From positions 1 to 64,000 of the IMG/VR virus record IMGVR_UViG_3300014204_000003: a stretch of DNA of 64,000 bases, one strand, 5' to 3'. The notes beneath the pieces are model-generated. The model did no database searches. It was not told where the DNA came from and was given only the letters and a program-made list of their open reading frames with translations. Source of the DNA: a virus (Duplodnaviria > Heunggongvirae > Uroviricota > Caudoviricetes). The translations under genes and the position numbers were made by a program. Positions 9,450-58,296 of this stretch are shown here, in pieces (position 1 is the first letter of the stretch; the number at the start of each line of letters is the position of its first letter).

Positions 9450-10190
9450 CTATTGAGAGTCAACCAATCCTTCATTGTCCCCGTTGGCCTTTTGAACGGT
9501 GGTGGAAATATCTCCATTCGGCTCCTTTGCCGGTTTAATTAATTCGAAATCCCTAGTCCCGAATCCCTGAGCTTTCATATCATCCAAGACCTGTTTGACT
9601 GATGTCTTTTTATTGAATTCCAGATTGATAATGTAGGGCTTTGAGGGCTTGGACAATCCGCCCCATCTTTCACGAATACTCAATTGGGCCCTATGCAGCG
9701 GTTCGGATGCATCAAAATCAAGGCCGGCAAAGATATGGTTATAATTATCCTCCTTGTGAACAGCTTTTAAAACTTTGCGATAAAAGATCCACTGTTCTCC
9801 TTCATATAAATCCCGGGATGAAAAGCCGCTAAGTTTTATAAAATCTTCATTGCCATAGTTGCAGAGAGCGTTTGAACCAATTGCGCGAAGGCACATACCA
9901 TAAGGGTCATTGGGAATCCCAACTTCATGAATAAAACTGACAATCCATGGATTTGTCTGCCATCCAACAGAAGTGCGGCACACAACCAAGTCACCTACCT
10001 CCAGGATCTTGGTTTTACTGAAATTGGTGTATTGAGCCCGCGGCCAATGCAACCCATCTTTATGGATATCAATCCCGCGCAATTCAAATAGGTTTTCAAC
10101 GTAAGCTAATCTTGAAGCCAATTGAGACGTAATATTCATCAATATCCGCTCTCGATCGGTCAAGGTCGGGGTATTGTCTTTCCTTCTCAA
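9450..10190 (-). CDS. hypothetical protein
   Basis: 246-aa ORF with no recognisable motif. Confidence 0.45.
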   Translation of the reverse strand: MRRKDNTPTLTDRERILMNITSQLASRLAYVENLFELRGIDIHKDGLHWPRAQYTNFSKTKILEVGDLVVCRTSVGWQTNPWIVSFIHEVGIPNDPYGMCLRAIGSNALCNYGNEDFIKLSGFSSRDLYEGEQWIFYRKVLKAVHKEDNYNHIFAGLDFDASEPLHRAQLSIRERWGGLSKPSKPYIINLEFNKKTSVKQVLDDMKAQGFGTRDFELIKPAKEPNGDISTTVQKANGDNEGLVDSQ

Positions 10191-10297
10191 GGTTTCTCCT
10201 TCTTAAAATCCGTTGAATATCCGTGTGCCGCCCGTCTAAGGACCGTCCGACGCCCATTCCTGCATATCAAAAATCCTGCAATCATAATCCCATTAAT

Positions 10298-10373
10298 TGG
10301 AGGGGCCAGTGGGATTCGAACCCACAATTCACGGAGCGAAAGTCCGTTGTCCTAACCGTTAGACGATGACCCC
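10298..10373 (-). tRNA. tRNA-Glu (anticodon UUC)
   Basis: Hand fold on the minus strand. T-arm GTGGG/TTCGAAT/CCCAC, a 7-bp acceptor with one G-U, anticodon loop CTTTCGC. CCA is encoded. Coordinates are ±2 nt. Confidence 0.7.
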
Positions 10374-10582
10374 TTTTGCTTGCATTCCCTGTCGGTTCTC
10401 CTGACAAGGCATTCGTATTCTACGATTGAATCATATCCTGATCCATGAGCAACTAAACTGGAAGCTCGCAGCCTCAACCAATCAGCCAATTCACATCGAC
10501 TTTCATGTGACATGGCCGCAGCGTCTTTGATCGTTAGAATAGCTCTAAACCCTTTTGCGCCCGGCATTAGATATTTAACCTC

Positions 10583-10658
10583 TGGCGGTTCCAACGGAAT
10601 TCGAATCCGTGTCTCCTGATCGACAGTCAGGAATCATGGGCCATTAGACGATGGAACC
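10583..10658 (-). tRNA. tRNA-Asp (anticodon GUC)
   Basis: Hand fold. T-arm ACGGA/TTCGAAT/TCCGT, acceptor GGTTCCA, anticodon loop CTGTCGA. CCA is encoded. Confidence 0.7.
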
Positions 10659-10668
10659 TTTATAGTCC

Positions 10669-10914
10669 TTAATCTTTTAAATCAAATTTTGCTGCAAATG
10701 CCTTCGCGGCAGTCTGAAACAGTGTCATAGATGTCTCTGCCAATACCGTCTCTCCAGATGGCAATTCAAAAACAAAGGCGATTGATGGCTTGCCACTCTC
10801 CATGCCTCCGGCTAAAGCCGCAACCGTTATTGGGGTTGTAAGGTGAATAACCTTTTCTGTTGGGACATCTTTTATGATTCCGGTTGCATCCATCACTATT
10901 TTAAGTACGGTCAT
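10669..10914 (-). CDS. hypothetical protein
   Basis: 81-aa ORF between tRNA genes. Confidence 0.35.
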   Translation of the reverse strand: MTVLKIVMDATGIIKDVPTEKVIHLTTPITVAALAGGMESGKPSIAFVFELPSGETVLAETSMTLFQTAAKAFAAKFDLKD

Positions 10915-17807: not shown

Positions 17808-17880
17808 CGTAAAAAGTTGGAATTGAACCAACTACCCATTGCTTTTCAGGCAATTGCTCTACCAGATGAGCTATTTTCAC
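17808..17880 (-). tRNA. tRNA-Phe (anticodon GAA)
   Basis: Hand fold in normal order. Acceptor GTGAAAA/TTTTTAC with one G-U, D-arm GCTC/ATCTGGTA/GAGC, anticodon arm with loop CTGAAAA, T-arm GTTGG/TTCAATT/CCAAC. Confidence 0.65.
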
Positions 17881-17910
17881 ATGTAAGCCGAACAGTATCA
17901 GGAAACTATA

Positions 17911-21311: not shown

Positions 21312-21595
21312 TGCATCCGGCCTCGATTCCAAAGGGATTTATAAGGACTCGTGGCCTCTGATTCCAGATCGGGTTTAAAAACGATATCAACGTGATTTTG
21401 CTTTACGGCGCGGGCGATTACCGCTAATAGCAATAAGAATAAAATAGCCCCCATCGCCCCTATAGCCCATGCCGGACAATGATATCGATCCATATAGAGC
21501 CATATTAACGCTGCGAGATGGACCACCTTAAGAGGATGAGACGGAATTCTCTCCCATGGCAATACCCAATTTTCATGTTCATCTTTTGACGGCAT
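21308..21595 (-). CDS. hypothetical membrane protein
   Basis: Two hydrophobic helices. Confidence 0.35.
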   Translation of the reverse strand: MPSKDEHENWVLPWERIPSHPLKVVHLAALIWLYMDRYHCPAWAIGAMGAILFLLLLAVIARAVKQNHVDIVFKPDLESEATSPYKSLWNRGRMQ

Positions 21596-21596
21596 T

Positions 21597-21857
21597 CTAA
21601 CTACCTTTCTTCCCGAGGATGGATTCTTTCCCTTTCATTAGTATTCCGTAGGTAACTGGTTCGTACCTGCTAAGATTTTGAAGGTCAGATTCCGGCATGA
21701 CCTTCCAGTTTCCATCATTCTGGAAGACTATAATGAGACCGCACTTCTTACAGACAGCGATATCGTTCTCTTTCGGTTTCCCTTTGCCGGTTATATGGTT
21801 AGACGTATTTATCAGGTTGTGACAATTCGGGCATGAACCCATTGAAACCTTATCCAT
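21597..21857 (-). CDS. hypothetical zinc-ribbon protein
   Basis: CPNCHNL...CKKCG motif. Confidence 0.35.
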   Translation of the reverse strand: MDKVSMGSCPNCHNLINTSNHITGKGKPKENDIAVCKKCGLIIVFQNDGNWKVMPESDLQNLSRYEPVTYGILMKGKESILGKKGS

Positions 21858-21907
21858 TTATATTCCCTTTGCATCCTTTGCAATATTTCGACTTCCAATC
21901 AGCCGGA

Positions 21908-22402
21908 TTATTGCACCGCGGTCATGCCATTAATTTTTTCGACATTAGGGTCTTTCCCATCAAACATAAAATTCATTTGCACTACATCGGCAAAAGCACG
22001 AACATTGCTCATCCAGCACCCATGCCTCTGAATCACAGCGCAAAACTCCTCAATGTCATGATCCTTGAGATAGAATCCCTTCTCATCGATCGCTAAATGG
22101 CATAACTCATGATCGATCAGTGCTATCTGCTGATCGAGGGTGAGAACGTCCCAATAAACCTCGTCTACCTCGATTATGAAATCGAGTCCGGTGACAGCGG
22201 TCATAAGCGCGTTCAATGATCTTGCCTTCGCCATTGCTGGATGCTTTCCCATTCGCGTTGGCATCTTGGGACCGTCGCTCTCTTCCGGAGCCATTTTCAT
22301 CATATAAGCGATCTTTGCGTGAGCTACCTCCTGATGGTGCATGCTCAGTAGGGGTTCTGCCACCTGTTTGATTCTTTCTGATTTTTCGTATATGGCTGGC
22401 AT
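21908..22402 (-). CDS. putative HExxH zinc metallopeptidase (SprT-like motif)
   Basis: IDHELCHLAID carries an HExxH motif in the HELCH context seen in SprT/phage metallopeptidase families. Confidence 0.45.
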   Translation of the reverse strand: MPAIYEKSERIKQVAEPLLSMHHQEVAHAKIAYMMKMAPEESDGPKMPTRMGKHPAMAKARSLNALMTAVTGLDFIIEVDEVYWDVLTLDQQIALIDHELCHLAIDEKGFYLKDHDIEEFCAVIQRHGCWMSNVRAFADVVQMNFMFDGKDPNVEKINGMTAVQ

Positions 22403-22627
22403 CTGTTTTCTCCTTTTTACTTTGCTCGAATTTTAATGGCTTACAGTTTTTATCCGCACATCGATCGGAGTGTAGAGACATGGCCTTGGGCCCTATTTCA
22501 AATGTAGAAGCTTGGCTCACAAAAACCAACCCGCCGCATTTAAAGTGAACCAGCCATGGTCCAACATAATCCTTTTTACCACATTTGTCTCTATGGTTTT
22601 TCCCTGATGGTACCTTATTAGGCTTTT

Positions 22628-23905
22628 TCATCCGTTATTTTCCGCCAACATGCTCTTACCCACCCAAGTATTGCCAGTGGAAAGATACCTTACAGGAACT
22701 CCAGAAAGTTTCTCGACCTTGTTTATTATAGAATTGGTTGAGATAAGACTATAGGAATATTTTTTATCCCCGGACATCATATCTTGGGTGAGCTTTTTGG
22801 TAAAATTTCCCTTTTCGTCCAAATAACCATCGCAATAGACCCATTTATTTAAGAATTTCAATGCATCTATATGTGTTATTGCCAAGGCATCAACATTCCC
22901 TATGGCATTAAGTGCATATTTGAATGCCATAGCATCAAAATACCCGATTCTAAGTGATCCTTGCCATTCATTGTTGGTATTATGGTCATTCTTCCATGGA
23001 GTGATCCCCTTAATTGCCCCATTTGAGACCTCGGTAATAAAGGGGCCAGCACCATGCCTGGTGAAATATGATCGCACAACTCCGATTTTGGTTATTTCGA
23101 CGCCTGACCGAGCCCCATATTGGTTAATAATACTCAAAGCTCCGTTGAAAGTGCAATCCGACCACGTAATATGCTTTCCGAAGCCATGGATTTCATCCAG
23201 AAGCATGCCTTGGGCGCCCTCAAAGACAACGGCATTGGGATTTTCGATCGTAATATCATGCCACCCCCCCCAGCGAACGCTCTTGAACCATTCCTTGTAG
23301 TATTCCCAGACAGATGCGGGGCTTGTCATCTCCATCGATCGGTAAATCGAAATCGTTTCCTCGTTATTTACAAAATCACGGCACTGTTCGAGCTTGTAAT
23401 CCTTTATGTGAAATAGTTTATCCCGTCCATAGATGCTGGCAATGTCAGAGCCATCAAACCACAGTCCGGAAATCCTGTCTCCCCTGGTCTCTCCAATCCC
23501 CATTCCGCAGGACCCGTGACGGTTTGCTCCTCGGGACGCCTCCTTTAGGCGATTTGCCATAAAATGCCATGGGGTTATGATCGTACATTTAGGATTGATA
23601 AGGATACGCTTAAGACCATCATGAATGCCGACATAATAGAGATGATTATTTTCGTTGATCATCGCATAGGGTTCGATGAGCATATACTCAGAGAGGTAAG
23701 TCTGGCACCCGGGAATAAAGGTGCCGGACCCAAACTGTGCAAAGGTATGATGGCGGCCGTCAGGAAGCACGACATTATGTGCTGCCTGCGGACCGCCATT
23801 GTATCGGACTACCCATTTGGCATCATGCCATCGGCAAAGGTAATCAACCATCGTGCCTTTGCCTTCATCCCCGAATGCCAAACCTGCAACTATTAAACAC
23901 TTCAT
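22628..23905 (-). CDS. purA: adenylosuccinate synthetase (PurA family)
   Basis: 425 aa. The N-terminal GDEGKGT P-loop follows VVRYNGGPQAAHNV, matching the PurA pattern GDEGKGK...RYQGG.NAGH. Full-length PurA size. Confidence 0.85.
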   Translation of the reverse strand: MKCLIVAGLAFGDEGKGTMVDYLCRWHDAKWVVRYNGGPQAAHNVVLPDGRHHTFAQFGSGTFIPGCQTYLSEYMLIEPYAMINENNHLYYVGIHDGLKRILINPKCTIITPWHFMANRLKEASRGANRHGSCGMGIGETRGDRISGLWFDGSDIASIYGRDKLFHIKDYKLEQCRDFVNNEETISIYRSMEMTSPASVWEYYKEWFKSVRWGGWHDITIENPNAVVFEGAQGMLLDEIHGFGKHITWSDCTFNGALSIINQYGARSGVEITKIGVVRSYFTRHGAGPFITEVSNGAIKGITPWKNDHNTNNEWQGSLRIGYFDAMAFKYALNAIGNVDALAITHIDALKFLNKWVYCDGYLDEKGNFTKKLTQDMMSGDKKYSYSLISTNSIINKVEKLSGVPVRYLSTGNTWVGKSMLAENNG

Positions 23906-23928
23906 GCTTGGTTTCTCCTCTTTTGAAA

Positions 23929-24972
23929 TTACAGTCTGTCGACTCCCCCCGCAGCGCCGGCAACGGCAGGAAGATTCTCCGCGGAATACCGGCTTACTTC
24001 ACCAGTCGCCTTTGATAGTGGCACGAGCGCAGATGAAATACCGACATCGGCAATCCCATCGGAAACCAAGTCATCGATGCCGACATATTCCTCGCAAATT
24101 GCGACCGCGGATACGATGCATTCGCAAATCTTGGCCGGATTTTCCAGCTTGATGACGTTTTGCTGGCCGATAAGGTTGACCCAATACTTCTCCAAAGACT
24201 TATCCGAGTAATGAGAGGTCATATTGGGGATCACAAAAAAGACGTGATATCTCTCCTGAGCTTCCTTGAGGAGGGCAGGGAAGGCAATATCATCCTGGAT
24301 AACATCACCGATGACATCCTTCACCTTATGCTTGCCAAGAACATCATAGGCATGCTCATCGCCGATGATGAAGAGATATCCCTTGCGCCCTCTCTTCTCG
24401 AAATGATCATGAACAGTGTGCCGGGCCATGAAATATACGGCCAGTTCGTACTCTTCTTCATACGTTCCGCCGCCGTGATTGGTGAGCCAGAGATTTGACA
24501 GGTTATCGTCAATTTCAATCCCGGATTCAAACTGCCCGATCTGGAAGGACCCGTCAGGTTTCCCAAAGTATCTGCTCATGGCGTCGTAATCGTCCACGGC
24601 GCCTATCATTATTGCCGGATAACCCTCGCCGAGATATTTCTTTCCGGATGCTTTGTCGTCCAGAAAGTGTCCCATCAATTTGCTGAGTTCTTTTTGCAGC
24701 ATTTTGGGAACATCCATCATGGAACCGGTGGTGTCCGTTATGACTGCGATCGGAACCGATACCGGGTGGGCATCGGAGTCTCTTGATTCCCGGATTTTGA
24801 CGCCCTTGGGGCTGAGGGAATCGTGAACCTTTGCCTCTGCCGCGCCGGTTTTGATGTCATGAGAATGCTTGAATGTCGCATCATCCATGGAAATACCATG
24901 ACTGGTAGAAAACATGGACCTCATAGATGTCCTTGATTTGTAATCGTCCTTTGAATAATAACTTCCACCCAT
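23929..24972 (-). CDS. VWA-like domain protein
   Basis: PIAVITDTTGSMMD is a MIDAS-like DxTxS motif. Later IMIGAVDD and LFIIGDEHAYD strands fit a VWA fold. Confidence 0.45.
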   Translation of the reverse strand: MGGSYYSKDDYKSRTSMRSMFSTSHGISMDDATFKHSHDIKTGAAEAKVHDSLSPKGVKIRESRDSDAHPVSVPIAVITDTTGSMMDVPKMLQKELSKLMGHFLDDKASGKKYLGEGYPAIMIGAVDDYDAMSRYFGKPDGSFQIGQFESGIEIDDNLSNLWLTNHGGGTYEEEYELAVYFMARHTVHDHFEKRGRKGYLFIIGDEHAYDVLGKHKVKDVIGDVIQDDIAFPALLKEAQERYHVFFVIPNMTSHYSDKSLEKYWVNLIGQQNVIKLENPAKICECIVSAVAICEEYVGIDDLVSDGIADVGISSALVPLSKATGEVSRYSAENLPAVAGAAGGVDRL

Positions 24973-24985
24973 ATTAGAACTCCTT

Positions 24986-25987
24986 TCAGTTCTTTGGCAT
25001 CGTTAAGGTAAGGAATTTCGGTTCTCCGAATTCTTCCTTTGCTAGATTGACCCATCGGTCCTGAACCATCCATGCATCTGCCGGTCGAGAAGCTGGAGAT
25101 TCAGTTACACACCATTGAATAAGACCCCTGAAACGCTTTGGCACTTCTCCAGAGATAATTTCTATGGATTTCATGAGCATATAAATATCCGTCCATGGGC
25201 CGGCAAGTCTCTTCTTCTTAACCTCTGGAGGATAGTTATTCGAATAATCCCTGACTATTGCAGGGATGTTCTGACCATTGGTGCAGGAATAGCACCAATC
25301 GACAAGTTTTAACCCATGGCTTTTAGGGTCATAAAGAAGGTGACATGGGAGAATCGCTCCGTGGACAATACCGGACTGATGAGCAAACCCCAAAATACTT
25401 AGAGCTCGGTTTACCATCCAGACAATATGACGGAAGTCCAACTTGCCTGAATGAAGGTCTACAATCTCTCTTAGTGGAAGATATGTAAGCTCATTATGAA
25501 GTATGTTCACCCGGCGCCCTGAGGCCTTAACCCCTTGAATGAATTCCGGGAGATATTTCCGGAAATTTTCGGGCTTGGCCTTCCACAGGATTTCGAGAGC
25601 GGTTCTTTCCCTATCCATGAGATCATTATCTTTGGGACCGCGGACAATCTTAAGGATCACATTGGGATCCTTAGACGATTCTGCAATATAGAGATCGCAG
25701 ATATCGCCTTTGGTTAATGGCTCCGAAACCACGCATCCGGCAATTACCACAGGATTGTAAGCTTCCTTGCGAGTAAACCCGGTATACAGTTCATTTAGTT
25801 TCTTGAAAGCAGCCAGTGATCTTGCCTCCATCCCAATAGGAGCCACATCCGGGTGAACTATCCGGGCGAGCCTTTTGAATATCTTCGCTGGGTCGCAGTC
25901 CTTTGGGAATAAATCCCTCGGAGAAGTCGCACGGGTAATCTCCTCCAGACAGCTTTCCAACGGTTCCTGTTTGATTCTTGACGGCAT
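24986..25987 (-). CDS. J-domain (DnaJ-like HPD motif) fused to protein-kinase-like domain
   Basis: The N-terminus KIFKRLARIVHPDVAP...AFKKLNELY has the J-domain HPD signature. The C-terminal region has a VAIK-like ILKIVRGP, a catalytic-loop-like GIVHGAILPCHLLYD and a DFG-like KLVDW. Confidence 0.5.
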   Translation of the reverse strand: MPSRIKQEPLESCLEEITRATSPRDLFPKDCDPAKIFKRLARIVHPDVAPIGMEARSLAAFKKLNELYTGFTRKEAYNPVVIAGCVVSEPLTKGDICDLYIAESSKDPNVILKIVRGPKDNDLMDRERTALEILWKAKPENFRKYLPEFIQGVKASGRRVNILHNELTYLPLREIVDLHSGKLDFRHIVWMVNRALSILGFAHQSGIVHGAILPCHLLYDPKSHGLKLVDWCYSCTNGQNIPAIVRDYSNNYPPEVKKKRLAGPWTDIYMLMKSIEIISGEVPKRFRGLIQWCVTESPASRPADAWMVQDRWVNLAKEEFGEPKFLTLTMPKN

Positions 25988-26037
25988 TTACACCCCTTTT
26001 CTGTTGCTCGCATATGGCCTTAAATTCCATGATGAAT

Positions 26038-26313
26038 TTAAGCATTTTCCATTTTCCTCAATCTTCGCGCAATCCTCTCCGTTAGAAGGATAGTCTTGCG
26101 TGGAAGGCGAGACCTTTTAATGGCATTCACCTTCTTGATATTCTTGGCCAACATCTTCATCGTTTCGGACCATCCAAAAGGAAGTTCCCAATCTCCATTG
26201 TTCTTATTTTCCCAATGGACAACCGTCTCCCGGGTAACTCTAAGAGCTTCCGCTACTTCACTCTGCCTAAGACCAATTTGCTTTCTCAGTAACCTGAATT
26301 CACAGCCCTTCAT
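26038..26313 (-). CDS. HTH transcriptional regulator (XRE family)
   Basis: LRKQIGLRQSEVAEALRVTRETVVHWENK is a classic XRE helix-turn-helix. Confidence 0.65.
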   Translation of the reverse strand: MKGCEFRLLRKQIGLRQSEVAEALRVTRETVVHWENKNNGDWELPFGWSETMKMLAKNIKKVNAIKRSRLPRKTILLTERIARRLRKMENA

Positions 26314-26336
26314 GTAACATCCTTCCTGATCGGGGC

Positions 26337-26759
26337 TTATTCCTTATTTACCTTGCATGGTTTTCTCTTCTGCTTGGATTGAAGAGCATCCACGGTTTCA
26401 ATTAATGCCGGAAGTTTCTCCATAATTTTTGCTAAACCATCCTTCATTGAATTGACTTCACCCCGGAGTTCATTAAGCAAATATTCAACATTATTTACCT
26501 GAACGTCGAACCCGGTCTCACGCATGGGCACCCTGGACTTAAGAGTCTCCACAAGATTCTGTTGGGCGTTAATCCTTTGCTCCAGCCGGCATATATGCTT
26601 CCATGGATGCTGGAATCGGGACATCTCGGATTCATGGATTAATACCGGGACGTTCCCTTTTTTACAGAGAAGTTCTCCCTTTTCAATCATCTTCAGAACG
26701 ATTTCTTCACTGAATCCCATTAGATATGCGGCTTCAGTGATGGTTATATAGAAGCTCAT
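26337..26759 (-). CDS. hypothetical protein
   Basis: 140-aa ORF. Confidence 0.4.
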   Translation of the reverse strand: MSFYITITEAAYLMGFSEEIVLKMIEKGELLCKKGNVPVLIHESEMSRFQHPWKHICRLEQRINAQQNLVETLKSRVPMRETGFDVQVNNVEYLLNELRGEVNSMKDGLAKIMEKLPALIETVDALQSKQKRKPCKVNKE

Positions 26760-27109
26760 TTATTTTCCTCCGTGACCTTAATTGCAGACCCAATAATAGT
26801 TTTAGCTTTTTCCCCTATAATTTTCATAAGGGCGAATGCAGCCATAGGGTCCATGTTTTTACCAAAACTTAGGATGAGCGAGGATTCGTTTAATTTGATC
26901 TGTTGCTCGTCAAATAAAACGATGCATGCCACTCCGAATCCAGCGCGGCCGATAATATCATCAAAATCACCACACATGTTTGAGGCTAATATCTGCCGTT
27001 CGTCTGGTTTTTGTGAATGCATATGCGGCTTATTGTCATCAATCTCTTGATTGCAAATCCTGCAAATCATTGGACCCTCCTTTTGTACACTGCCGAATGG
27101 GGACAGCAA
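26756..27109 (-). CDS. hypothetical Cys-rich protein
   Basis: 117-aa ORF containing CRICNQ...H. Confidence 0.35.
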   Translation of the reverse strand: MLSPFGSVQKEGPMICRICNQEIDDNKPHMHSQKPDERQILASNMCGDFDDIIGRAGFGVACIVLFDEQQIKLNESSLILSFGKNMDPMAAFALMKIIGEKAKTIIGSAIKVTEENK

Positions 27110-27269
27110 CTACGGAACCGAATCATGTGATTAAATTCAATCATATAACCATCTTCAATACTAAAACTCGTCCCGGTTACAGTCATGCCAACCAAGGTTT
27201 TAGCGAATTCCTGTTCCTGTGCTTCCGTCCGGCATTCTTCTTTCGCTTTGGTTTCTTCCCGTACATCCA

Positions 27270-28163
27270 TTAAACATCCACCCCCTTTGGAAACTGCAAC
27301 CATTCTTTACCGTCCAGGAGATGGCCGGCTGCTTTCTTACCGACGCGGATCATGTACGCCTCTCCCGTGTCGGGATCAATTGGCCTTCCGTTCCATCCGG
27401 TAGTGCTTGGGAACCATTCTCCGTCCATAGCCAAAACTCCAAAATCCTTTGAATTAACGTATTCGGATTTGACCGCCCATTCCCCCCACTGCTTAAAGTG
27501 GAATGGCACACTTGCCGCTACGCACTGATCCCGTAGTGACCTTACCCAATCCGGATGCATTGGACGCGCTCCGGGGCCGGACTCGCCGCCAACAATAACC
27601 CACCAATTTCTCAGGTCTAATCCGATCCGATTGAATCCAGAGACTTTCCTAAAATCGATCGGTCCCAGAAGAGGTTCACAAGAAATAAACTTGATGGCTG
27701 CCGGAGTCTGGAGAAGCAGCGGGATCCGCTCATCGGCTGTGGCTTGGTCCTCGACGGAGACTCCGATCCAGACGTTGGGGAGCGGGGCGTATCCTTGGCG
27801 CTTAAACCACTCCAGCATTCGCAATGGCCGCTTTGTCAAAATCTGGTATGTGTGCTGCGGAGTGTCCCGCATTACATACCAAATTTCATAAATGAAATCG
27901 CTTAGTACCCTATCATGAAAAAGGTCGCCCATAAGCCCAACCGCAATCTTGCGCGGTTTCCACCAGTGAAGCGGCTGCTCCAAGCGTTCATAGAATAGCC
28001 GCACATGCCCATCCCACCCTTGGGGATACTCGTCGTGATAGTGCAGTCGGGCCTGCCTTTCCGCCCAGCAATGGGTGCAGCCATCGGAAATCTTACTGCA
28101 CCCTACGATTGGGTTGAACGTGATATCAGTCCAAGAAATACCATTTTTACTCTGTGTGGACAT
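27270..28163 (-). CDS. phage Gp37/Gp68-family protein (DUF5131-like)
   Basis: N-terminal ISWTDITFNPIVGCSKISDGCTHCWAE matches the family's conserved IxWTD...NP..GC...S.GC..CYA block. Confidence 0.6.
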   Translation of the reverse strand: MSTQSKNGISWTDITFNPIVGCSKISDGCTHCWAERQARLHYHDEYPQGWDGHVRLFYERLEQPLHWWKPRKIAVGLMGDLFHDRVLSDFIYEIWYVMRDTPQHTYQILTKRPLRMLEWFKRQGYAPLPNVWIGVSVEDQATADERIPLLLQTPAAIKFISCEPLLGPIDFRKVSGFNRIGLDLRNWWVIVGGESGPGARPMHPDWVRSLRDQCVAASVPFHFKQWGEWAVKSEYVNSKDFGVLAMDGEWFPSTTGWNGRPIDPDTGEAYMIRVGKKAAGHLLDGKEWLQFPKGVDV

Positions 28164-30107: not shown

Positions 30108-30941
30108 TTATCTGTTTACGTCATAAACCTTGGAAACATCGGAACCGACAATGAAGGTAGCGTTCTTGGCCGCAGCCTCTTTCAGCATTTTAATGTTCTC
30201 GAGTTGCAGGAATTGGCTTGGAGAAAGCTGCATCTTTTCCCTATAAGCATTATCGGCAGCCGCCCTGGATTCTTCCGCCATCTTTCTTTGATCTTCGGCG
30301 AGTTTTCGTTGCTGTTCTGTCATTTGACGCTGTTCTTGGGTAGCCGTCTCTATCCTCTGATGCTTAATGCTGTCAGGAGGGTTAGCTTTCCCGACAGTGA
30401 TATCCACGAGCCGCACAGGGAGATTGGCTTTCTTAATATAAACCTCCATCTGCTGAGACACTTCTGTATCGATCGCCTCTATGGCTATAGTTGAGATAGC
30501 GGTTTCGTTCATTCCGTGTTTTCTAACTGCCTGCCGGACCCGGTTGCGCATTTCTGCCAATACATTATTTTCGTACCATTGAGGACCGAATTCCTTAATC
30601 AGGCGGACTGAATCTATTATCTTAAGCCTAATAACCGCATCGAAATCCAGCGGGACGCCATCAGAAGACATCAAATCATCGAAATGCACAGTGAACTGAA
30701 TTGGTTGCATATTCACATAAATGTCTTGAGTTGTGAACGCCGCAAGCGTCAACCCGGTTGACACGGGTTTCGGATCAACCCCTCCATGGCCGAAGAATAG
30801 GGGCTTCTTAACCAAGACAGCCTCTTGGCCGGCATCTGGAGATACCACGGTGCATCCGGTGGCAAACAGAAGAAGCAGAAAGGCCATCATGAATAAAGCC
30901 AAAGCTTGCAAATATCTTGCACAAAAATAATTCGTTCTCAT
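30108..30941 (-). CDS. SPFH/band-7 (stomatin/prohibitin-like) membrane protein
   Basis: N-terminal transmembrane segment followed by an SPFH-like core and a long coiled-coil tail (QEQRQMTEQQRKLAEDQRKMAEESR). Confidence 0.6.
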   Translation of the reverse strand: MRTNYFCARYLQALALFMMAFLLLLFATGCTVVSPDAGQEAVLVKKPLFFGHGGVDPKPVSTGLTLAAFTTQDIYVNMQPIQFTVHFDDLMSSDGVPLDFDAVIRLKIIDSVRLIKEFGPQWYENNVLAEMRNRVRQAVRKHGMNETAISTIAIEAIDTEVSQQMEVYIKKANLPVRLVDITVGKANPPDSIKHQRIETATQEQRQMTEQQRKLAEDQRKMAEESRAAADNAYREKMQLSPSQFLQLENIKMLKEAAAKNATFIVGSDVSKVYDVNR

Positions 30942-34864: not shown

Positions 34865-35144
34865 CCTCCGCCGTTTGAATACTGTGGTGCTCCGTATAAA
34901 CCATTTTGCCAGTCAAACGCTTGGTGTCCCAAGATGTTGTTCCCGAGTTTCCGCATTTAACTAAATACTTGGCTCCGTCGTCGTAGAATCTGTAGGCCCG
35001 GCATCCATCATAATCAAAAAGAACATCCACTTTTATCTCTGAATTGGTGGATTGCTCTCTTTTGACCGGATCACTGCTGCAAGCTGAAAGGATGAGCAAC
35101 ATAAAAAACGAGACGCATTTAAGTTTCATTCTCCATTCTCCCAT
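34839..35144 (-). CDS. putative lipoprotein
   Basis: MKLKCVSFFMLLILSACSS is a lipobox-like signal (LSAC). Confidence 0.45.
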   Translation of the reverse strand: MGEWRMKLKCVSFFMLLILSACSSDPVKREQSTNSEIKVDVLFDYDGCRAYRFYDDGAKYLVKCGNSGTTSWDTKRLTGKMVYTEHHSIQTAEVGEYGIRK

Positions 35145-35680
35145 CTATTCTGGAATACGGGAAACACACGTAATCCGTTTTGCCTCCACATGTCACAGAC
35201 ACTTGGCCTGTCGTCTATGCAGAACAGAATTTCATAACGGTCTTTGATCCTAATTAGAGACATTTCCTTGAGAAGCCTATCGTCTCTTTTGTCACCGTCG
35301 CACCTTGGCATCCATAGACCGTCATAATCGACCCCATGGAGCTTCAACCACTCAACCGTGTCTTTTTCTATGCTTAGTCTGCGGCCGGTTACGATCAATA
35401 TTTTTATGCCGGAATCTCTGATGGCTTTTACCCATTCGATAACGCCAGTATTGGGAATGTCATTTTTTACCTCACCATAAAATGAATCCCAATCCTTTTT
35501 TGGGCCTGTTATAAAGTGAAGACGAGAATCAAGATTTGTGAGAGTCCCATCAATATCTACAATGACGGCTGGATACTTCATTCCCTTCCGCCTCCTTCCT
35601 CCGGTTTTATGCAAACGATTGAACCCCATAAGCCGAAGAAGAATAATTCCACTCCAGCGGCAAATAAAATGATTCGCCAA
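35126..35680 (-). CDS. HAD-superfamily phosphatase (polynucleotide 3'-phosphatase-like)
   Basis: VIVDIDGTLT is HAD motif I (DxDGT). ILIVTGR and FCIDDR are downstream motifs. Resembles the phosphatase domain of phage Pnkp. Confidence 0.65.
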   Translation of the reverse strand: MANHFICRWSGIILLRLMGFNRLHKTGGRRRKGMKYPAVIVDIDGTLTNLDSRLHFITGPKKDWDSFYGEVKNDIPNTGVIEWVKAIRDSGIKILIVTGRRLSIEKDTVEWLKLHGVDYDGLWMPRCDGDKRDDRLLKEMSLIRIKDRYEILFCIDDRPSVCDMWRQNGLRVFPVFQNRWENGE

Positions 35681-36563: not shown

Positions 36564-37352
36564 TTATGAATAAAAATCCAGCAATCCCTGGCATTCGTGA
36601 TCTTTGGGAACGCTATCGTTTGATAACCACCACTGGTATAGTTCATTGGAATCATTAAAATACCTCTCTCCAAACCAAACTCTTCCGTCTCGCTGATTTG
36701 TGCCAGCGCGGTTACTCCAGATAATTTTAAAGAGTCTTTCCCATGCCCTATAAAAGTGGGGGTATCTCATTAACTCTGATTTTTTATTACTGCTCATCGG
36801 GCAGCCAACGCATCCAAGGCGCTTGAACCCTTGGTCGTAGAGGTCGCAATATGGGATATTCCTACCCTTAATAAATTGCCAAACCTCTGAATCTGTCCAA
36901 TTAACGATTGGGGAAACTACATATTGGCCGGTCTTGGTATGTGCCGTAATTTCCTTCCAAGTCTTCGCCCTTCGCGCGGATTCAGCGGCGCGAACGCCAA
37001 AAATCATTACTGATCCAATGGGAGATTTGCTTTCCTTGTATTCTTCGCAGCACCATCTTGCCCTGCGTGTTGGGAATCCTCGCGTTTCGGCCATCTTGAA
37101 AAATGGAATTTTGGGTGCATCCCAAATAGCATCAGGATGATGCTTTTTAATAAATCTGCACAACTCAGGCGGGTCGATAGTGGTGACGCTGTAATGCCAG
37201 ATGACGTTAATATTCCCAAGCCGCGCAATTTCCTTGATGACGCATGAATCCTTGCCGCCAGAAAAACATCCGTAATATGGGCGATCTTTGGGCTGGTACA
37301 TTCGCAGGAGTTCAATCGCTCGCTCAACTTTGTCGCCGAATAAGTCATTCAT
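36564..37352 (-). CDS. PAPS-reductase-family (PP-loop ATP pyrophosphatase) protein
   Basis: YGCFSGGKDSCV is the SGGKDS PP-loop motif. A C-terminal GCVGCP cysteine pair occurs as in CysH/DndC-like phage proteins. Confidence 0.7.
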   Translation of the reverse strand: MNDLFGDKVERAIELLRMYQPKDRPYYGCFSGGKDSCVIKEIARLGNINVIWHYSVTTIDPPELCRFIKKHHPDAIWDAPKIPFFKMAETRGFPTRRARWCCEEYKESKSPIGSVMIFGVRAAESARRAKTWKEITAHTKTGQYVVSPIVNWTDSEVWQFIKGRNIPYCDLYDQGFKRLGCVGCPMSSNKKSELMRYPHFYRAWERLFKIIWSNRAGTNQRDGRVWFGERYFNDSNELYQWWLSNDSVPKDHECQGLLDFYS

Positions 37353-39886: not shown

Positions 39887-40741
39887 TCACATTCCCTGAA
39901 TGTCAAATACTTTATGTGAATTATCGTTACATTTATTATTATGCGCGGCATAGATTGCGGCCGGCCGGGCCCATTTCTTCTGGAAACGCATCCACTGGCG
40001 GTCACGTTTGCCATTTTTATCACGAAAGAGCATAGCCATGGGAAAGACTCCCAAATTCAGAACTGATTCCAGTCGTTTCTCTGCTCGTTCGATCGTATCG
40101 TTCTCATATCCGATTAAAACGAAGCACCTGAGATTTTGCCTGGTGAAGTCGGCTTCGATCATTTTTGCGGCGGCAATTACGAGAGGGTCCCAGTCTCCGG
40201 GAGTGTCATATGCAAAAAAAAGTTGATGGGGTTTAAGCTGGGCCAATAAATCCACATGCCAATCTTTAAGGATGGCAGCCTCGAGGCCTCCGGTGAATTC
40301 CGCCCGGGTTTGCTGTCGACTGAGCATGGAGAAGACTTCCCGGACATGGGAATCCGAGCAGGCGAGCAGATTGTCATCGAGGATATTGAATCCATCAGCG
40401 ACCGGATATTCCCGGACTATTCGGCCTTCGCGCTCCGGGACTGAACAGAACCAGCAGCGATTTGGGCAGCCGCGGCTGGTGATGACATAGCCGGACTTCA
40501 GATAGCGGCCGGGAATGAATTCCTCACCCCTCATGCCGGTAGCGGGGCCTCCGATCCTGACCGGTGCGACATGGCGCCATTCCCGGGCCAATCGTTCTGC
40601 TTCCGGAAGATCCCAAGTGAAAGTGACGCTGACATGAACTTCATCAACCTCTGGGGGGAATAATCCCGGGGCGCCGACAAAGGCGAGCTCATCGGAAGGC
40701 GTCGCTTTGGTTCTTCGCGGGAAAACCCGGGCAATCCTCAT
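39887..40741 (-). CDS. radical SAM domain protein
   Basis: TSRGCPNRCWFCSVPE contains a CxxxCxxC radical-SAM cluster motif. Confidence 0.55.
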   Translation of the reverse strand: MRIARVFPRRTKATPSDELAFVGAPGLFPPEVDEVHVSVTFTWDLPEAERLAREWRHVAPVRIGGPATGMRGEEFIPGRYLKSGYVITSRGCPNRCWFCSVPEREGRIVREYPVADGFNILDDNLLACSDSHVREVFSMLSRQQTRAEFTGGLEAAILKDWHVDLLAQLKPHQLFFAYDTPGDWDPLVIAAAKMIEADFTRQNLRCFVLIGYENDTIERAEKRLESVLNLGVFPMAMLFRDKNGKRDRQWMRFQKKWARPAAIYAAHNNKCNDNSHKVFDIQGM

Positions 40742-54031: not shown

Positions 54032-54486
54032 CGCGAGTGAATCCAAATATAGTTGCCTTAACAGAATCAGTTGTAGGTGGCGCCCCGTTTAAAATCGGGG
54101 ATGTTGTCAAGCATCCGACTGGAAAGATGGTTAAAATCATCTCCGGACAATATTGGGGGAAATACGGTATTTCCAACTTCTGGTATTGGCGGGAAGTCAA
54201 AGAATCTGGAGGCCTTGGCAAGGAAGAATGCGGATATGGATGGAGGCAATTAGTGAGAGAACCAAAGTTTGTCATGGTTATGCTTGATGGTGAACCAACT
54301 ATTCACGCTACTTCGGTACATGGTAACTACGACGATACCCTTTGTGGAATAGATGCCAATGACAATGTAGGCCATGAAGGCATGTACCCAGCCGCCGAAG
54401 GAGCTAAAATAACGTGCATGGATTGCATCCGCTTGATTAAATATTGCCGAAAATATGGCAACGCCGATTTAAGGAGTGAGAAATGA
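54016..54486 (+). CDS. hypothetical protein
   Basis: 156-aa ORF. Confidence 0.4.
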   Translation: MGDFMTRVNPNIVALTESVVGGAPFKIGDVVKHPTGKMVKIISGQYWGKYGISNFWYWREVKESGGLGKEECGYGWRQLVREPKFVMVMLDGEPTIHATSVHGNYDDTLCGIDANDNVGHEGMYPAAEGAKITCMDCIRLIKYCRKYGNADLRSEK

Positions 54487-55067
54487 GCCATCTTTTTTTA
54501 GATGAATCCAAGATCCATATCCTTTTGGAATCCGCAAAGGGAAATCTCCGGGATTATGCTCTATTGCACATAGCAGCATCAACAGCCCTGCGTTCTTCTG
54601 ACATCCTGAGGATTAAACTGGAGGAGATAGTCAGCCGCGACGGAGACATCATCCATTTACTCAGGCTGAAGATGTTAAAAACCTCTCGGTGGATTGAACG
54701 GCCTCTCAGGGACGATTGCCGGCAAGCTATTTTCACTTGGATAAACAGCCGCAGGGACAAAAATCCATATCTCTTCTGTTCTTTGAGCCCGAATAGCAAA
54801 AATAGCAATTTCCCACTCCAGCGGAAGTCGTATCACGAAATCATGAAGAAATATCTGGGGATGCAATATAGCCCATCCGTGCTGCAAGGATGTTCCACTC
54901 ACACCCTAAGGCGATCGGTGGCAAAGGCTGTCTATAAAAAAACTGGAGAAATTGCGGCAGCCCAAATACTTTTGGGTCATTCCTCTCCGGTTGCGACATC
55001 TCTTTACATAGACCCTTTGGATATAAAAGAAAGAACCAATAAGATTGTGATGGACTTAAACTATTAA
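54483..55067 (+). CDS. tyrosine recombinase/integrase, catalytic domain only
   Basis: The C-terminal HTLRRSVAKAVYKKTGEIAAAQILLGHSSPVATSLYIDP has the integrase H-x-x-R...H...Y signature with the conserved Tyr. There is no N-terminal core-binding domain in this 194-aa ORF. Confidence 0.6.
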   Translation: MSHLFLDESKIHILLESAKGNLRDYALLHIAASTALRSSDILRIKLEEIVSRDGDIIHLLRLKMLKTSRWIERPLRDDCRQAIFTWINSRRDKNPYLFCSLSPNSKNSNFPLQRKSYHEIMKKYLGMQYSPSVLQGCSTHTLRRSVAKAVYKKTGEIAAAQILLGHSSPVATSLYIDPLDIKERTNKIVMDLNY

Positions 55068-55086
55068 GAATCTTATTCTATTTGCG

Positions 55087-55162
55087 GCGGGATACAGTAG
55101 GGGTTACTGGCTTGGCTCATAACCAAGACATAGGCGGAGTTCAAATCTCCGCTCCCGCTCCC
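55087..55162 (+). tRNA. tRNA-Met/fMet/Ile2 (anticodon CAU)
   Basis: Hand fold on the plus strand. Acceptor GCGGGAT/CTCCCGC, D-arm CAGT/AGGGGTT/ACTG, anticodon arm CTTGG-CTCATAA-CCAAG, T-arm CGGAG/TTCAAAT/CTCCG. It lies about 20 nt downstream of the recombinase stop. Confidence 0.6.
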
Positions 55163-55725
55163 AGATTTATACATCTTTCATTGACAGCCAGTTCGATCAT
55201 TGGATACAATCAATTTGCTTGGTTTCTCTCGGGGGGCTTGCCAGATCGGGGCGGGCTCCCCATTCCTTTTTATACCCCAACCAATTCCAGATAGACACGC
55301 AGCGCGTCATGTGCCAATGCCCAAGAACGCGCAGCTTCGGCGCCTTGGTGCCTGAGTATGTTAGTTATTTTTTTCTTTGGGTATGTTTGTGCGTAGTAGC
55401 GGGCAATCTGATTCTTTTTACGTCCGAGATGACGTACTTTTGCCGCGCCTTTTTTGGGTTTATTAAGGTCTCCCATGATTTTAGCTCCTTTTGAGTTTGC
55501 TAAAGTGTCATAAGAGACCTCCCATGGAGAATGCAGAACCTTGTATCGCACGCTTATTCTAATATTTTTATATATCCTGTCAATTATATTTTGTATAATC
55601 CGGTTGTTATCAGTGGTTATGTTTAGAAATTCAAATAACCGACGAATTACCAATAGCTGCATAAAAAAGGGGCCTCAGCTTGTGGTTGAGGCCCCTGAAA
55701 TATTTATACAAGGAGACCCAAGCTC

Positions 55726-56406: not shown

Positions 56407-58296
56407 ATGCACGACTCCGTAATGGATTTTTTGAGAAAGAACTGCAAGCGCGAAGAGTTCGAAGGGAAAAGGGTTCTCGAGATCGGAAGCATCTTCTGGG
56501 ATGTGAGTCCTCGAGATGTCATCATGCCCTTCAATCCTGGACTATATATCGGGATTGATGAACGCCCGGGCAAAGGAGTGGATACGGTAATGTCCGGCTG
56601 CAAGTTATCCAATCGATTTGAACCTGGCTGGATTGACGCGATCATTTGCACAGAAGTTCTCGAGCATGCAAAAGACTGGCGCCGTTTGATTGGGGAGATT
56701 AAACATGTCTTGGCTCCCGGAGGAGTCCTGTATCTGACTTGCCGCGGTGGGAATTATCCATATCACGAGGAACCTCACGATTATTGGAGGTTTTCTGTGG
56801 AAAATATGGAGAGGATCCTCAGCGACATGCTATTCACTGTCACGCCGGACCCTCAATTCCCCGGAGTATTCGCCAAAGCCTTTAAGCTTTCCTCCTCAGA
56901 TGGAGTTCCGGAAGCACATATTTCCTCGGTATATCCCAAGCCGGTATTCCCGCCGACTCATCACCTTTCCCATCAGGGACCTCCGAAAGACCAGTCTATA
57001 AAGTTCACGGTCATAACTCCGACGATCCTCAGGCCGTCATTAAAAACCGCCTGCCGGCGCCTTGAGACACAGACATACAAAAACTGGGAGCACATTGTCA
57101 TGATTGACACTCCCGGCGCCGAGATACCCGACTGGCTATATCATCCCCAAAGGAAAGTCCGGGTTTGCCGAACTCCTCACAATAACGTAGGAAATAGTTG
57201 CCGGTGTAATGCTTGGCCGCTCATAACCGGAGATTACATCCTCTATCTGGATGACGACAACTATTATCACAGCCGCAGTCTGGCTCTCCTTGCAGAAGCT
57301 ATTATGAGAATGGAACCTCGTCCAGAGTGGGGTGTATTCCCAATGGTGCGGCTGGGGCAGGTATTCTTTAATATCTCGCCCGGTAAAAACAGGACCGATA
57401 CCGGTCAATTCTTTCACAAACCTATCATTCACGGGAAAGAAATCAGATACCTGCCATTAAGTGAATACAACGCAGACGGCGAAATGGTCGACAGGCTTTC
57501 CCTGATATGCAAACCAGCTATTATTAATCCGGATATCCCTCTAATAAACATGCCCGTGAGGAGCTTCGGATTAAGAGCTGATGACTTCTCAGCGACAAAT
57601 GAAAGTAACTTTTCGGTTATTATCCCTAATCGGTTCGAGGATGTAATTCAACCTCTCATTCATTCGATCCGGATTCATGAACCTGAGCCTTTGCCAAATA
57701 TCCTGATTGTCGGTGATGGTCATGACCGTGACTATGGATTCTCCAACCTGAGACTGGATTATGAGCGGTTTATATTCTCCAGAAACGCAAATGCAGGAAT
57801 CAAATATGTGGATCCGGATGACGTTATTCTGGTAAACGATGACATCCGCCTCATAATGCCTACCTTCCAGGTTCTTCACCGAGTTATGAGCGAGAATCCC
57901 GATATCGGGATATTGACTCCTTTGGTCGACGGAGGAGTAGGCAATCCCAAACAGATCGCGGAAAATGCACTGACAGGAAAAACCTTCCCTCCTGATTTAA
58001 CCTATTCCGCTTGCACAAAAGACGACTACCTGACCTTCCCTATCGTATGCCTCAGACGAAAGCTCCTCGAGGAGATGCTTTTCAATGAAGATTTTGTGTC
58101 CTACGGGAGAGATGATGCTGACTTCTGTATCCGGGCCGGTCGTTTAGGATGGAAAGCGGCAGTGTGTAACCGGGTCGTGTGCCAGCATGGCATTGGAGGC
58201 CGGGAAAACCTTCGCGGGAAGAACTGGAATACCTCCTACATGAGACGGCAGGAACTTTTGGGCGGAGAAGATATTTTCACAAAGCTTCACGTGTAA
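56407..58296 (+). CDS. multidomain methyltransferase + family-2 glycosyltransferase fusion
   Basis: N-terminal SAM-MTase fold (VLEIGSIFWD...LAPGGVLYLT). Central GT-A module FTVITPTILRPS...LYLDDDNYY with a DxD motif. A second GT-A-like module (SVIIPNRFED...VNDDIRL). Confidence 0.6.
   Translation: MHDSVMDFLRKNCKREEFEGKRVLEIGSIFWDVSPRDVIMPFNPGLYIGIDERPGKGVDTVMSGCKLSNRFEPGWIDAIICTEVLEHAKDWRRLIGEIKHVLAPGGVLYLTCRGGNYPYHEEPHDYWRFSVENMERILSDMLFTVTPDPQFPGVFAKAFKLSSSDGVPEAHISSVYPKPVFPPTHHLSHQGPPKDQSIKFTVITPTILRPSLKTACRRLETQTYKNWEHIVMIDTPGAEIPDWLYHPQRKVRVCRTPHNNVGNSCRCNAWPLITGDYILYLDDDNYYHSRSLALLAEAIMRMEPRPEWGVFPMVRLGQVFFNISPGKNRTDTGQFFHKPIIHGKEIRYLPLSEYNADGEMVDRLSLICKPAIINPDIPLINMPVRSFGLRADDFSATNESNFSVIIPNRFEDVIQPLIHSIRIHEPEPLPNILIVGDGHDRDYGFSNLRLDYERFIFSRNANAGIKYVDPDDVILVNDDIRLIMPTFQVLHRVMSENPDIGILTPLVDGGVGNPKQIAENALTGKTFPPDLTYSACTKDDYLTFPIVCLRRKLLEEMLFNEDFVSYGRDDADFCIRAGRLGWKAAVCNRVVCQHGIGGRENLRGKNWNTSYMRRQELLGGEDIFTKLHV

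Follow-up and report, generated by a model that had tools for sequence, protein, structure and literature searches.

A three-gene cluster on the minus strand

We analysed a 64,000-nucleotide stretch of viral DNA (Caudoviricetes; positions 1 to 64,000 of IMG/VR record IMGVR_UViG_3300014204_000003), the whole of which is called the window below, and concentrated on a cluster of three genes on its minus strand (22628–25987). In order of transcription these are gene 1 (24986–25987; 333 amino acids (aa)), which encodes a J-domain joined to a kinase fold, gene 2 (23929–24972; 347 aa), which encodes a VWA-fold protein with a complete metal ion-dependent adhesion site (MIDAS), and gene 3 (22628–23905; 425 aa), which encodes a protein of the PurA (adenylosuccinate synthetase) family (Pfam Adenylsucc_synt, E = 2.7e−59). 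We found that this trio is a three-gene module with, judging from its sequences, a functionally distinct third branch of the PurA family at its core.

A preliminary description of this DNA, made from the sequence alone, had reported three consecutive minus-strand genes, and this was confirmed, with spacers of 13 nucleotides between genes 1 and 2 (24973–24985) and 23 nucleotides between genes 2 and 3 (23906–23928). The first spacer holds the Shine-Dalgarno site of gene 2 (AAGGAG), the second holds that of gene 3 (GAGGAG), and GGGGTG stands ahead of the start of gene 1. A consensus scan of positions 21500–27500 found 6 terminator-like sites, compared to 6.0 expected from shuffled sequences, and the only one on the minus strand was a weak stem within the VWA gene. 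As homologues are many (77 homologous clusters for gene 1, more than 5000 90%-identity clusters at 55–80% identity for gene 2 and more than 5000 clusters for gene 3) and the expected motifs are present, the three open reading frames (ORFs) are genuine genes and not chance ORFs.

Conservation and spread of the trio

Alignment to the VWA protein retrieved 30 IMG/VR loci on contigs of 33–416 kb; when a single PurA-like protein served as the query, no viral loci were retrieved. The order and orientation kinase-VWA-PurA-like were found in 23 of the 30 loci and the order VWA-PurA-like-kinase in 2, and the remaining 5 had VWA and PurA-like genes with no kinase gene in reach. A comparable order is seen in mycobacteriophage LRRHood, where a Ser/Thr kinase (gp253) is followed by a hypothetical protein (gp254), a small protein (gp255) and a PurA-like protein (gp256). 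When ORFs were clustered across loci, the kinase-like, VWA and PurA-like families were the only common ones, with all other clusters being found in 4 loci or fewer, and the trio is the only gene set kept over approximately 45 independent loci. Genes of the HD_4, polynucleotide kinase (PNK), PhageMetallopep and HNH families were considered as a possible fourth conserved member and rejected, as such neighbours are common to close relatives only.

The phages which carry the trio include Bxz1-like mycobacteriophages, Rhizobium and Vibrio phages and the uncultured phages of 33–416 kb. Among cultured phages, VWA and PurA-like genes occur together in approximately 201–202 Mycobacterium, 10 Rhizobium and 6 Vibrio records. 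The pair or trio is also present in chromosomes of metagenome-assembled genomes belonging to Planctomycetota, Ilumatobacteraceae and Terriglobia. Two contigs (630 and 640 kb) carry the three genes as an isolated island amid genes for sugar metabolism, ABC transporters and TonB receptors, with the GC content of their surroundings, and in the kinase-like proteins of these islands a CxxC...CxxC zinc ribbon replaces the J-domain.

Two candidate fusions were examined. One database protein (P0102, 730 aa) is predicted to join the VWA and PurA-like proteins, which is weak evidence as it may be a product of stop-codon read-through. A VWA-PurA-like ORF at another locus (L047) was rejected as a fusion, since it seems to reflect a frameshift or a read-through in DNA of high GC content. 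On a 199-kb phage contig (L003, 8001–10533) a distantly related J-domain pseudokinase (28% identity) stands ahead of an acyl-carrier-like (PP-binding) gene and the truncated remnant of a VWA gene, and no PurA-like gene was found within 8 kb; the module may have decayed or been rewired at this locus.

No paper describing the trio was found in the literature on PurA-like, VWA, J-domain, PurZ or conflict systems, and a survey of jumbo phages mentions DnaJ and MoxR-vWA but not a kinase-VWA-PurA-like module. The trio is a widespread, undescribed operon of phages and occasionally of bacteria.

Gene 3 belongs to neither the PurA nor the PurZ branch

The preliminary description had called gene 3 a canonical adenylosuccinate synthetase, acting either as an auxiliary metabolic gene or as PurZ. 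Neither label held. Gene 3 scored 154.8 bits against TIGR00184 (cutoff 395.6) and 161.6 bits against NF002223 (cutoff 402), which are the NCBIfam PurA equivalogs, and 44 bits against the PurZ model NF038379 (cutoff 300). Its best match in the PDB was a bacterial PurA (E = 1.8e−33) and no PurZ chain was matched.

In the PurA structures of Honzatko and Fromm, Asp13, His41 and Gln224 carry out phosphoryl transfer to O6, Asn38, Thr129 and Thr239, together with Arg143 of the partner subunit, hold the 5'-phosphate of inosine monophosphate (IMP), and Thr300, Thr301, Arg303 and Arg305 hold L-aspartate. We compared these positions, in E. coli PurA numbering, in a residue table and a neighbour-joining tree of 40 module-linked homologues (an earlier set held 28), 8 canonical PurAs (that of E. 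coli and others drawn from the phage collection) and 2 PurZs. Gene 3 keeps the P-loop (GDEGKG, aa 12–17; 23855–23872), Asp13, Lys16, His41, Gln224, Thr239, Arg306, Asp333 and Ser414. The P-loop, Asp13, Lys16, His41, Gln224, Asp333 and Ser414 were present in every one of the 28 homologues of the earlier set and, apart from single exceptions, throughout the set of 40. Asp13 in particular was present in 39 of the 40 module-linked proteins, and both PurZ references had Ser at this position, as do all PurZ and PurZ0 proteins characterised from phages (PMC12884076; Ser at position 13 of PurZ also in bioRxiv 2025.10.22.683976). A Ser or Gly at the position of Asp13 is what marks PurZ and PurZ0.

The rest of the pocket is different. 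In the “aspartate loop”, which reads W314-Q-G-S-L-R319 in gene 3 (22949–22966), Thr300 is replaced by Trp and Thr301 by Gln, Arg303 is deleted and Arg305 is replaced by Phe, Leu, Val or Ile. At the IMP 5'-phosphate site Asn38 is replaced by Gln and Thr129 by Cys, Arg143 is absent or variable and only Thr239 stays. The module-linked proteins have also gained four residues which are invariant or nearly so, namely His126 (for Ile), Trp240 (for Ser), His273 (for Val) and, in most cases, His331 (for Lys). This residue signature was found in 40/40 module-linked proteins, 0/8 canonical PurAs and 0/2 PurZs. The canonical PurAs all contained (S/T)TGRxRR and 7 of the 8 had the full ligand set, whereas TTGRxRR was missing from all 40 module-linked proteins and from each of the 120 top-scoring database homologues of gene 3.

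A phylogeny relative to PurA and PurZ had been proposed in the preliminary description; when it was made, gene 3 grouped with neither, the module-linked proteins being monophyletic and apart from both. Its residues and its place in this tree put gene 3 in a third branch of the PurA family, apart from both canonical PurA and PurZ. The first half-reaction, the guanosine triphosphate (GTP)-dependent phosphorylation of a 6-oxo group, is probably shared with PurA, because the GTP and phosphoryl-transfer residues are kept, but the two halves of the pocket which bind ribose-phosphate and aspartate look to have been rebuilt.

A 2026 survey collected 481 phage proteins of family PF00709, of which 147 were assigned to PurZ or PurZ0; its E. 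coli PurA clade contained 251 sequences, 246 of them prokaryotic and thus at most 5 from phages, and the remaining phage homologues served only as an outgroup and were not discussed (PMC12884076). The module-linked clade accounts for most of these left-over homologues.

Gene 2 represents a new VWA family

The preliminary description had predicted a MIDAS-type VWA protein, and both fold and motif bear this out. Gene 2 has a Rossmann-like VWA fold and a full MIDAS, comprising D80-T-T82-G-S84 (codons 24721–24735) at the end of the strand at residues 72–80, GGGT170, and D205 after the strand at residues 198–203. There was no Pfam match at E ≤ 1, and a fold search of BFVD returned only a mycobacteriophage homologue and generic VWA proteins. 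An exhaustive profile search gave 1974 50%-identity clusters, of which 599 had E ≤ 1e−30. By sequence, gene 2 is a new VWA family.

Both ends of the proteins in this family are unusual. The MGG which begins gene 2 (24964–24972) is part of a nearly invariant N-terminus, with MG at the start of 124 of the 133 full-length 50%-identity cluster representatives, compared to 118/133 representatives for DxTGSM of the MIDAS. The wider motif is M-G-[GS]-[GST]-x-[WYF]-[SD]-x-x-x-Y-x-x-R, the profile begins at residue 1 of the protein in nearly all matches, and the MG N-terminus is kept even at loci without a kinase. The C-terminal tail is flexible and mostly ends in R-[LIV] (DRL in gene 2).

Homing endonuclease genes of the HNH type were seen at this gene in several relatives. 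In L002 one lies between the VWA and PurA-like genes (10068–10472), and the VWA gene of some mycobacteriophages is split or extended by them (H33, H34, H64; BFVD A0A3G3M5V4), giving a 595-aa protein in phage Sauce. These may be inteins or freestanding homing elements targeting a highly conserved gene.

Gene 1 joins a J-domain to a probable pseudokinase

The J-domain of gene 1 covers aa 1–72 (25772–25987), with the HPD motif (H45-P46-D47) encoded at 25847–25855. The HPD was invariant or nearly so in alignments of 28 and 40 homologues and is kept in nearly all phage copies, and in the AlphaFold2 model (helices 10–19, 33–44 and 54–72) it is flanked by helices 33–44 and 54–72. Against Pfam DnaJ (PF00226) gene 1 scored 13.6 bits (E = 0.076; gathering score 27.8 bits); 14 of the 40 aligned family members matched this model at E ≤ 0.01, the best of them at E = 2.4e−19. 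The J-domain predicted in the preliminary description is therefore upheld by the motif, the family alignments and these matches in relatives.

The kinase-like domain (aa 85–320; 25028–25735) matched Pfam Pkinase below threshold (E = 9e−4), and matches to the same model were found in 29/40 family members. Of the hidden Markov model searches proposed earlier, those for DnaJ and Pkinase gave matches in part of the family, while gene 1 itself stayed below threshold and the VWA protein had no Pfam match. The domain has the bilobal fold of Hanks-type eukaryotic protein kinases and keeps the β3 Lys (K113), the αC Glu (E127), the DFG Asp (D230, in DWC where DFG is expected), the APE Glu (E255), the αF Asp (D267) and R301. 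However, the catalytic loop HRDxKxxN has become H-G-A-I-L-P-C-H (H209-G210-A211, P214, H216; HGA codons at 25355–25363). In a profile alignment to CK2alpha', HRDVKPHN is paired with HGAvlPeH, such that Asp is replaced by Ala, Lys by Leu and Asn by His. Across the whole family HRD has become HGA and Leu or Ile has taken the place of the catalytic-loop Lys, with His at the Asn position in most members. Degeneration extends to the Gly-rich loop as well (KGDICDLY, not GxGxxG). The kinase-like core proposed earlier is present, but its catalytic Asp and Lys have gone. Judged by these residues, gene 1 is not a conventional protein kinase and, because HGA replaces HRD across the family, its kinase fold is most likely a pseudokinase that binds nucleotides or, failing that, a very unusual enzyme.

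A VWA C-terminal aliphatic tail was found at 29/29 loci where the kinase-like protein has a J-domain or zinc-ribbon N-terminus and at 4/11 others (Fisher P = 1.8e−5, without correction for phylogeny).

Surroundings of the module in the window

The window is phage DNA, with genes for a portal protein, large terminase, HNH protein, endonuclease VII, helicases, DnaB, a DnaD-like loader, single-stranded DNA-binding protein and methyltransferases, as well as 12 tRNA genes. Megablast of 20–30 kb of the window against phage records found no near-identical deposited phage. Eleven of the tRNA genes (Glu, Asp, Tyr, Cys, Asn, Ser, Gln, Pro, Trp, His and Phe) are clustered on the minus strand at 10298–17881, and a tRNA-Met gene (55086–55163, plus strand) lies directly 3' of a short integrase-like ORF (54483–55067, 194 aa).

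Within the tRNA cluster there is a 527-aa ORF (14510–16093, minus strand) with sub-threshold matches to VWA_CoxE and VWA_2 at aa 334–430 and a match to phrog_850 “RNA-binding protein”; its size and layout resemble those of Ro60/Rsr (TROVE plus VWA) proteins, and an Rfam scan at gathering cut-offs found no Y-RNA. Four genes upstream of the module is a DUF5131 (phage Gp37/Gp68) gene (27270–28163, minus strand; Pfam E = 2.7e−88, phrog_2045 E = 1.7e−101). SPFH/Band_7, polynucleotide-kinase-like, phosphoadenosine phosphosulfate (PAPS)-reductase-like and radical-SAM-like genes follow further upstream on the same strand (30108–30941, 35126–35680, 36564–37352 and 39887–40741 respectively). A PNK gene is also present three genes ahead of the module in Bxz1-like phages, but these four kinds of neighbour are not kept with the module across loci. 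Downstream of the PurA-like gene lies a PhageMetallopep gene (21908–22402, minus strand; Pfam E = 3.5e−24), and the close relative L002 has this metallopeptidase gene after its module too; a longer ORF overlapping it (22107–22631, minus strand) is probably spurious. At approximately 45–46 kb gene orientation changes from minus to plus and the GC skew changes sign, suggesting divergent transcription or a replication boundary. A 629-aa protein encoded at 56407–58296 (plus strand) combines an N-terminal S-adenosylmethionine (SAM)-dependent methyltransferase domain with a family 2 glycosyltransferase domain.

A possible role for the module

Taken as a whole, the explanation which we favour, with moderate confidence, is that the three genes are one self-contained, horizontally mobile operon, formed around a third-branch PurA-like enzyme which works with the VWA protein and a DnaK-recruiting pseudokinase. 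The PurA-like enzyme would be a GTP-driven ligase or aminase: it would activate a hypoxanthine-type carbonyl on a substrate other than free IMP and join it to some nucleophile which is not aspartate; since Asp13 is kept, this substrate probably has no 2-amino group. The VWA protein and the PurA-like enzyme would form a complex in which the N-terminal side of the VWA protein is tied to the enzyme, while its C-terminal R-L tail may contact the pseudokinase. The J-domain is predicted to recruit host DnaK (Hsp70) as an ATP-driven remodelling motor, giving a layout which would be analogous to that of AAA+/MoxR-VWA-target enzyme systems. The presence of the module in many unrelated phages, and in bacteria as a lone island, suggests a role in phage-host conflict (takeover or counter-defence) and not in purine supply. 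Among the PADLOC-DB 2.0 defence models the VWA and PurA-like proteins had no match and the kinase-like protein had only weak generic kinase matches.

Several points weigh against this explanation. The J-domain of gene 1 itself scores under the Pfam threshold, and the loss of the aspartate ligands is read off alignments to E. coli PurA. The proposed complex rests on gene adjacency, one possible read-through fusion and a co-occurrence of tail and kinase type which is uncorrected for phylogeny. Some modules have no kinase-like gene or lack its J-domain, and the core chemistry therefore cannot depend on DnaK recruitment. Nor is the module by its nature a weapon of phages, as its bacterial copies show.

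A more specific version of the chemistry, which we offer tentatively and think unlikely, involves the N-terminus of the VWA protein. Here, the α-amine of its invariant N-terminal Gly, freed by removal of the initiator Met, would replace aspartate as the nucleophile, so that a GTP-activated hypoxanthine nucleotide would be joined covalently via N6 to the protein N-terminus (“N-terminal purinylation”, approximately +330 Da with IMP). The VWA R-L tail would be the docking site of the pseudokinase, whose J-domain would pass the conjugate or complex to DnaK.

Alternative explanations

The trio could instead serve chaperone-assisted maturation, in which the VWA protein and J-domain-recruited DnaK load metal into the PurA-like enzyme, or free it from an inhibitor, and the matured enzyme makes a small-molecule nucleotide derivative, with NorQ/NorD, CbbQ/CbbO and BchI/BchD as models. 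The intact MIDAS and the HPD of the J-domain are consistent with this, as is the general pattern of ATPase, vWA and target known from described vWA co-chaperone systems (PMC7159879). The newly gained, invariant or nearly invariant His126, Cys129, His273 and His331 are all in the region of the active site and are candidate ligands of a putative metal. Modules without a kinase or J-domain exist, however, and the invariant VWA N-terminus would be left unexplained, and we therefore see maturation as possible but unlikely.

VWA-plus-kinase modules are a known kind of module, and an active phospho-signalling pair, similar to TerY-P/YegI-YegL or to ArnB with its kinases, could switch the PurA-like enzyme by phosphorylation. 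The Hanks-type fold of gene 1, with the Lys of β3, the Glu of αC and of APE and the Asp of DFG and αF in place, agrees with such a pair. It is nevertheless improbable given the rebuilt catalytic loop (HGA for HRD, Lys to Leu or Ile, Asn mostly to His) and the degenerate Gly-rich loop, and no PP2C phosphatase or FHA partner is kept across loci.

It is quite improbable that the PurA-like enzyme modifies nucleic acids, adding an N6 substituent to hypoxanthine or another 6-oxopurine in DNA or RNA, or to (deoxy)inosine triphosphate. The loss of 5'-phosphate ligands, including the trans-subunit Arg143, the gain of Trp and His near the ribose-phosphate site, and the tRNA-rich nature of the window and of Bxz1-like phages, with their PNK-like genes, could be read in this way, but the proteins have no nucleic-acid-binding domain, PNK and tRNA genes are not kept with the module, and the bacterial chromosomal copies lie amid metabolic genes.

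We consider it very unlikely that gene 3 is an ordinary auxiliary metabolic gene, a working adenylosuccinate synthetase which boosts synthesis of adenosine monophosphate next to two unrelated upstream genes. It is a full-length member of the family whose closest solved structures are bacterial PurAs, and it keeps Asp13, His41, Gln224 and the GTP-specific Asp333. Yet its scores of 155–162 bits fall far under equivalog cutoffs of approximately 400, seven ligands (Thr300, Thr301, Arg303, Arg305, Asn38, Thr129 and Arg143) are replaced family-wide, and purine supply would leave the strict linkage to a VWA gene unexplained. The domain calls of the preliminary description stand, while its reading of gene 3 as an auxiliary PurA or as PurZ does not.

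A PurZ or PurZ0 enzyme carrying out the first step of 2-aminoadenine (Z-base) DNA synthesis is extremely unlikely despite the family name “2-aminooxy adenylosuccinate synthetase” in PHROG and RefSeq, as Asp13 stands where PurZ has Ser, the PurZ model score is far below its cutoff, the PurZ of phiVC8 is not detectably similar (tblastn E = 0.4), the aspartate ligands which PurZ also needs have gone, and the GTP-type Asp333 is kept where the two PurZ references have Phe331/Asn333. The search for MazZ, DatZ and DpoZ-like partner genes suggested in the preliminary description found none in the 64-kb window (tblastn with phiVC8 PurZ, DatZ, DpoZ and neighbouring genes as queries, without significant match), and PurZ was rejected on this ground too.

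Significance

Phage homologues of PurA are now sorted either as PurA-type metabolic genes or as PurZ for Z-DNA, and the largest group of PurA homologues in cultured phages fits neither class. This group spans approximately 200 Bxz1-like mycobacteriophages and thousands of metagenomic clusters. If the explanation which we favour is true, the labels “adenylosuccinate synthetase” and “2-aminooxy adenylosuccinate synthetase” are misleading for these proteins, and the module would represent new GTP-dependent purine-ligase chemistry as well as a new phage route to Hsp70. Were the N-terminal Gly amine to be the nucleophile, phages and bacteria would share a protein-nucleotide conjugation system of a new class. 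The module is present in genetically tractable phages of M. smegmatis, which makes the question directly testable.

Comparison with known systems

The PurA-like enzyme shares with PurA (EC 6.3.4.4) its fold, family (PF00709), length and P-loop, along with Asp13, His41, Gln224, Thr239, Asp333 and Ser414. It differs in having W-Q-G-x-hydrophobic-R in place of TTGRxRR, in its Gln38, Cys129, missing Arg143 and new His126, Trp240, His273 and His331, and in that its gene is always paired with a VWA gene and comes directly after it. Like PurZ and PurZ0 it is a phage-borne, neofunctionalised paralogue of PurA, but Ser13, Asn38, Thr129, Arg305, the use of aspartate and the length of approximately 340–370 aa which mark PurZ are missing from the PurA-like clade; Arg306 is kept in PurZ. 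PurZ is linked to DatZ/MazZ/DpoZ or DutZ/DmtZ, and the PurA-like clade is not.

The J-domain protein Rki of phage RB43 is a small stand-alone J-protein which stabilises sigma32 (PMC3486835). Gene 1 resembles it as a phage-encoded HPD J-domain predicted to engage host DnaK, and differs in that its J-domain is fused to a pseudokinase inside a three-gene enzyme module.

The trio also resembles ATPase-vWA-target systems (MoxR-vWA of Kaur et al. 2020; BchI/BchD/BchH, NorQ/NorD and CbbQ/CbbO) in placing a MIDAS-VWA adaptor beside an enzyme or effector, along with a component supplying a chaperone ATPase. However, the trio loci keep no AAA+ MoxR gene, only the kinase-like, VWA and PurA-like genes being conserved, and host Hsp70, brought in by the J-domain in trans, would act as the motor. 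The third component of the trio is a probable pseudokinase, and its effector is a PurA-family enzyme, which is so far unreported in such systems.

Triads of a VWA protein, a Hanks kinase and a PP2C phosphatase include the TerY-P triad, E. coli YegI/YegK/YegL and archaeal ArnA/ArnB with ArnC/D. The trio shares with these a VWA gene beside a gene for a Hanks-type kinase fold and, in its bacterial copies, zinc-ribbon N-termini on the kinase. It differs from them in that its kinase is without the catalytic Asp and Lys, it has no phosphatase or FHA partner, and its invariant partner is the PurA-like enzyme.

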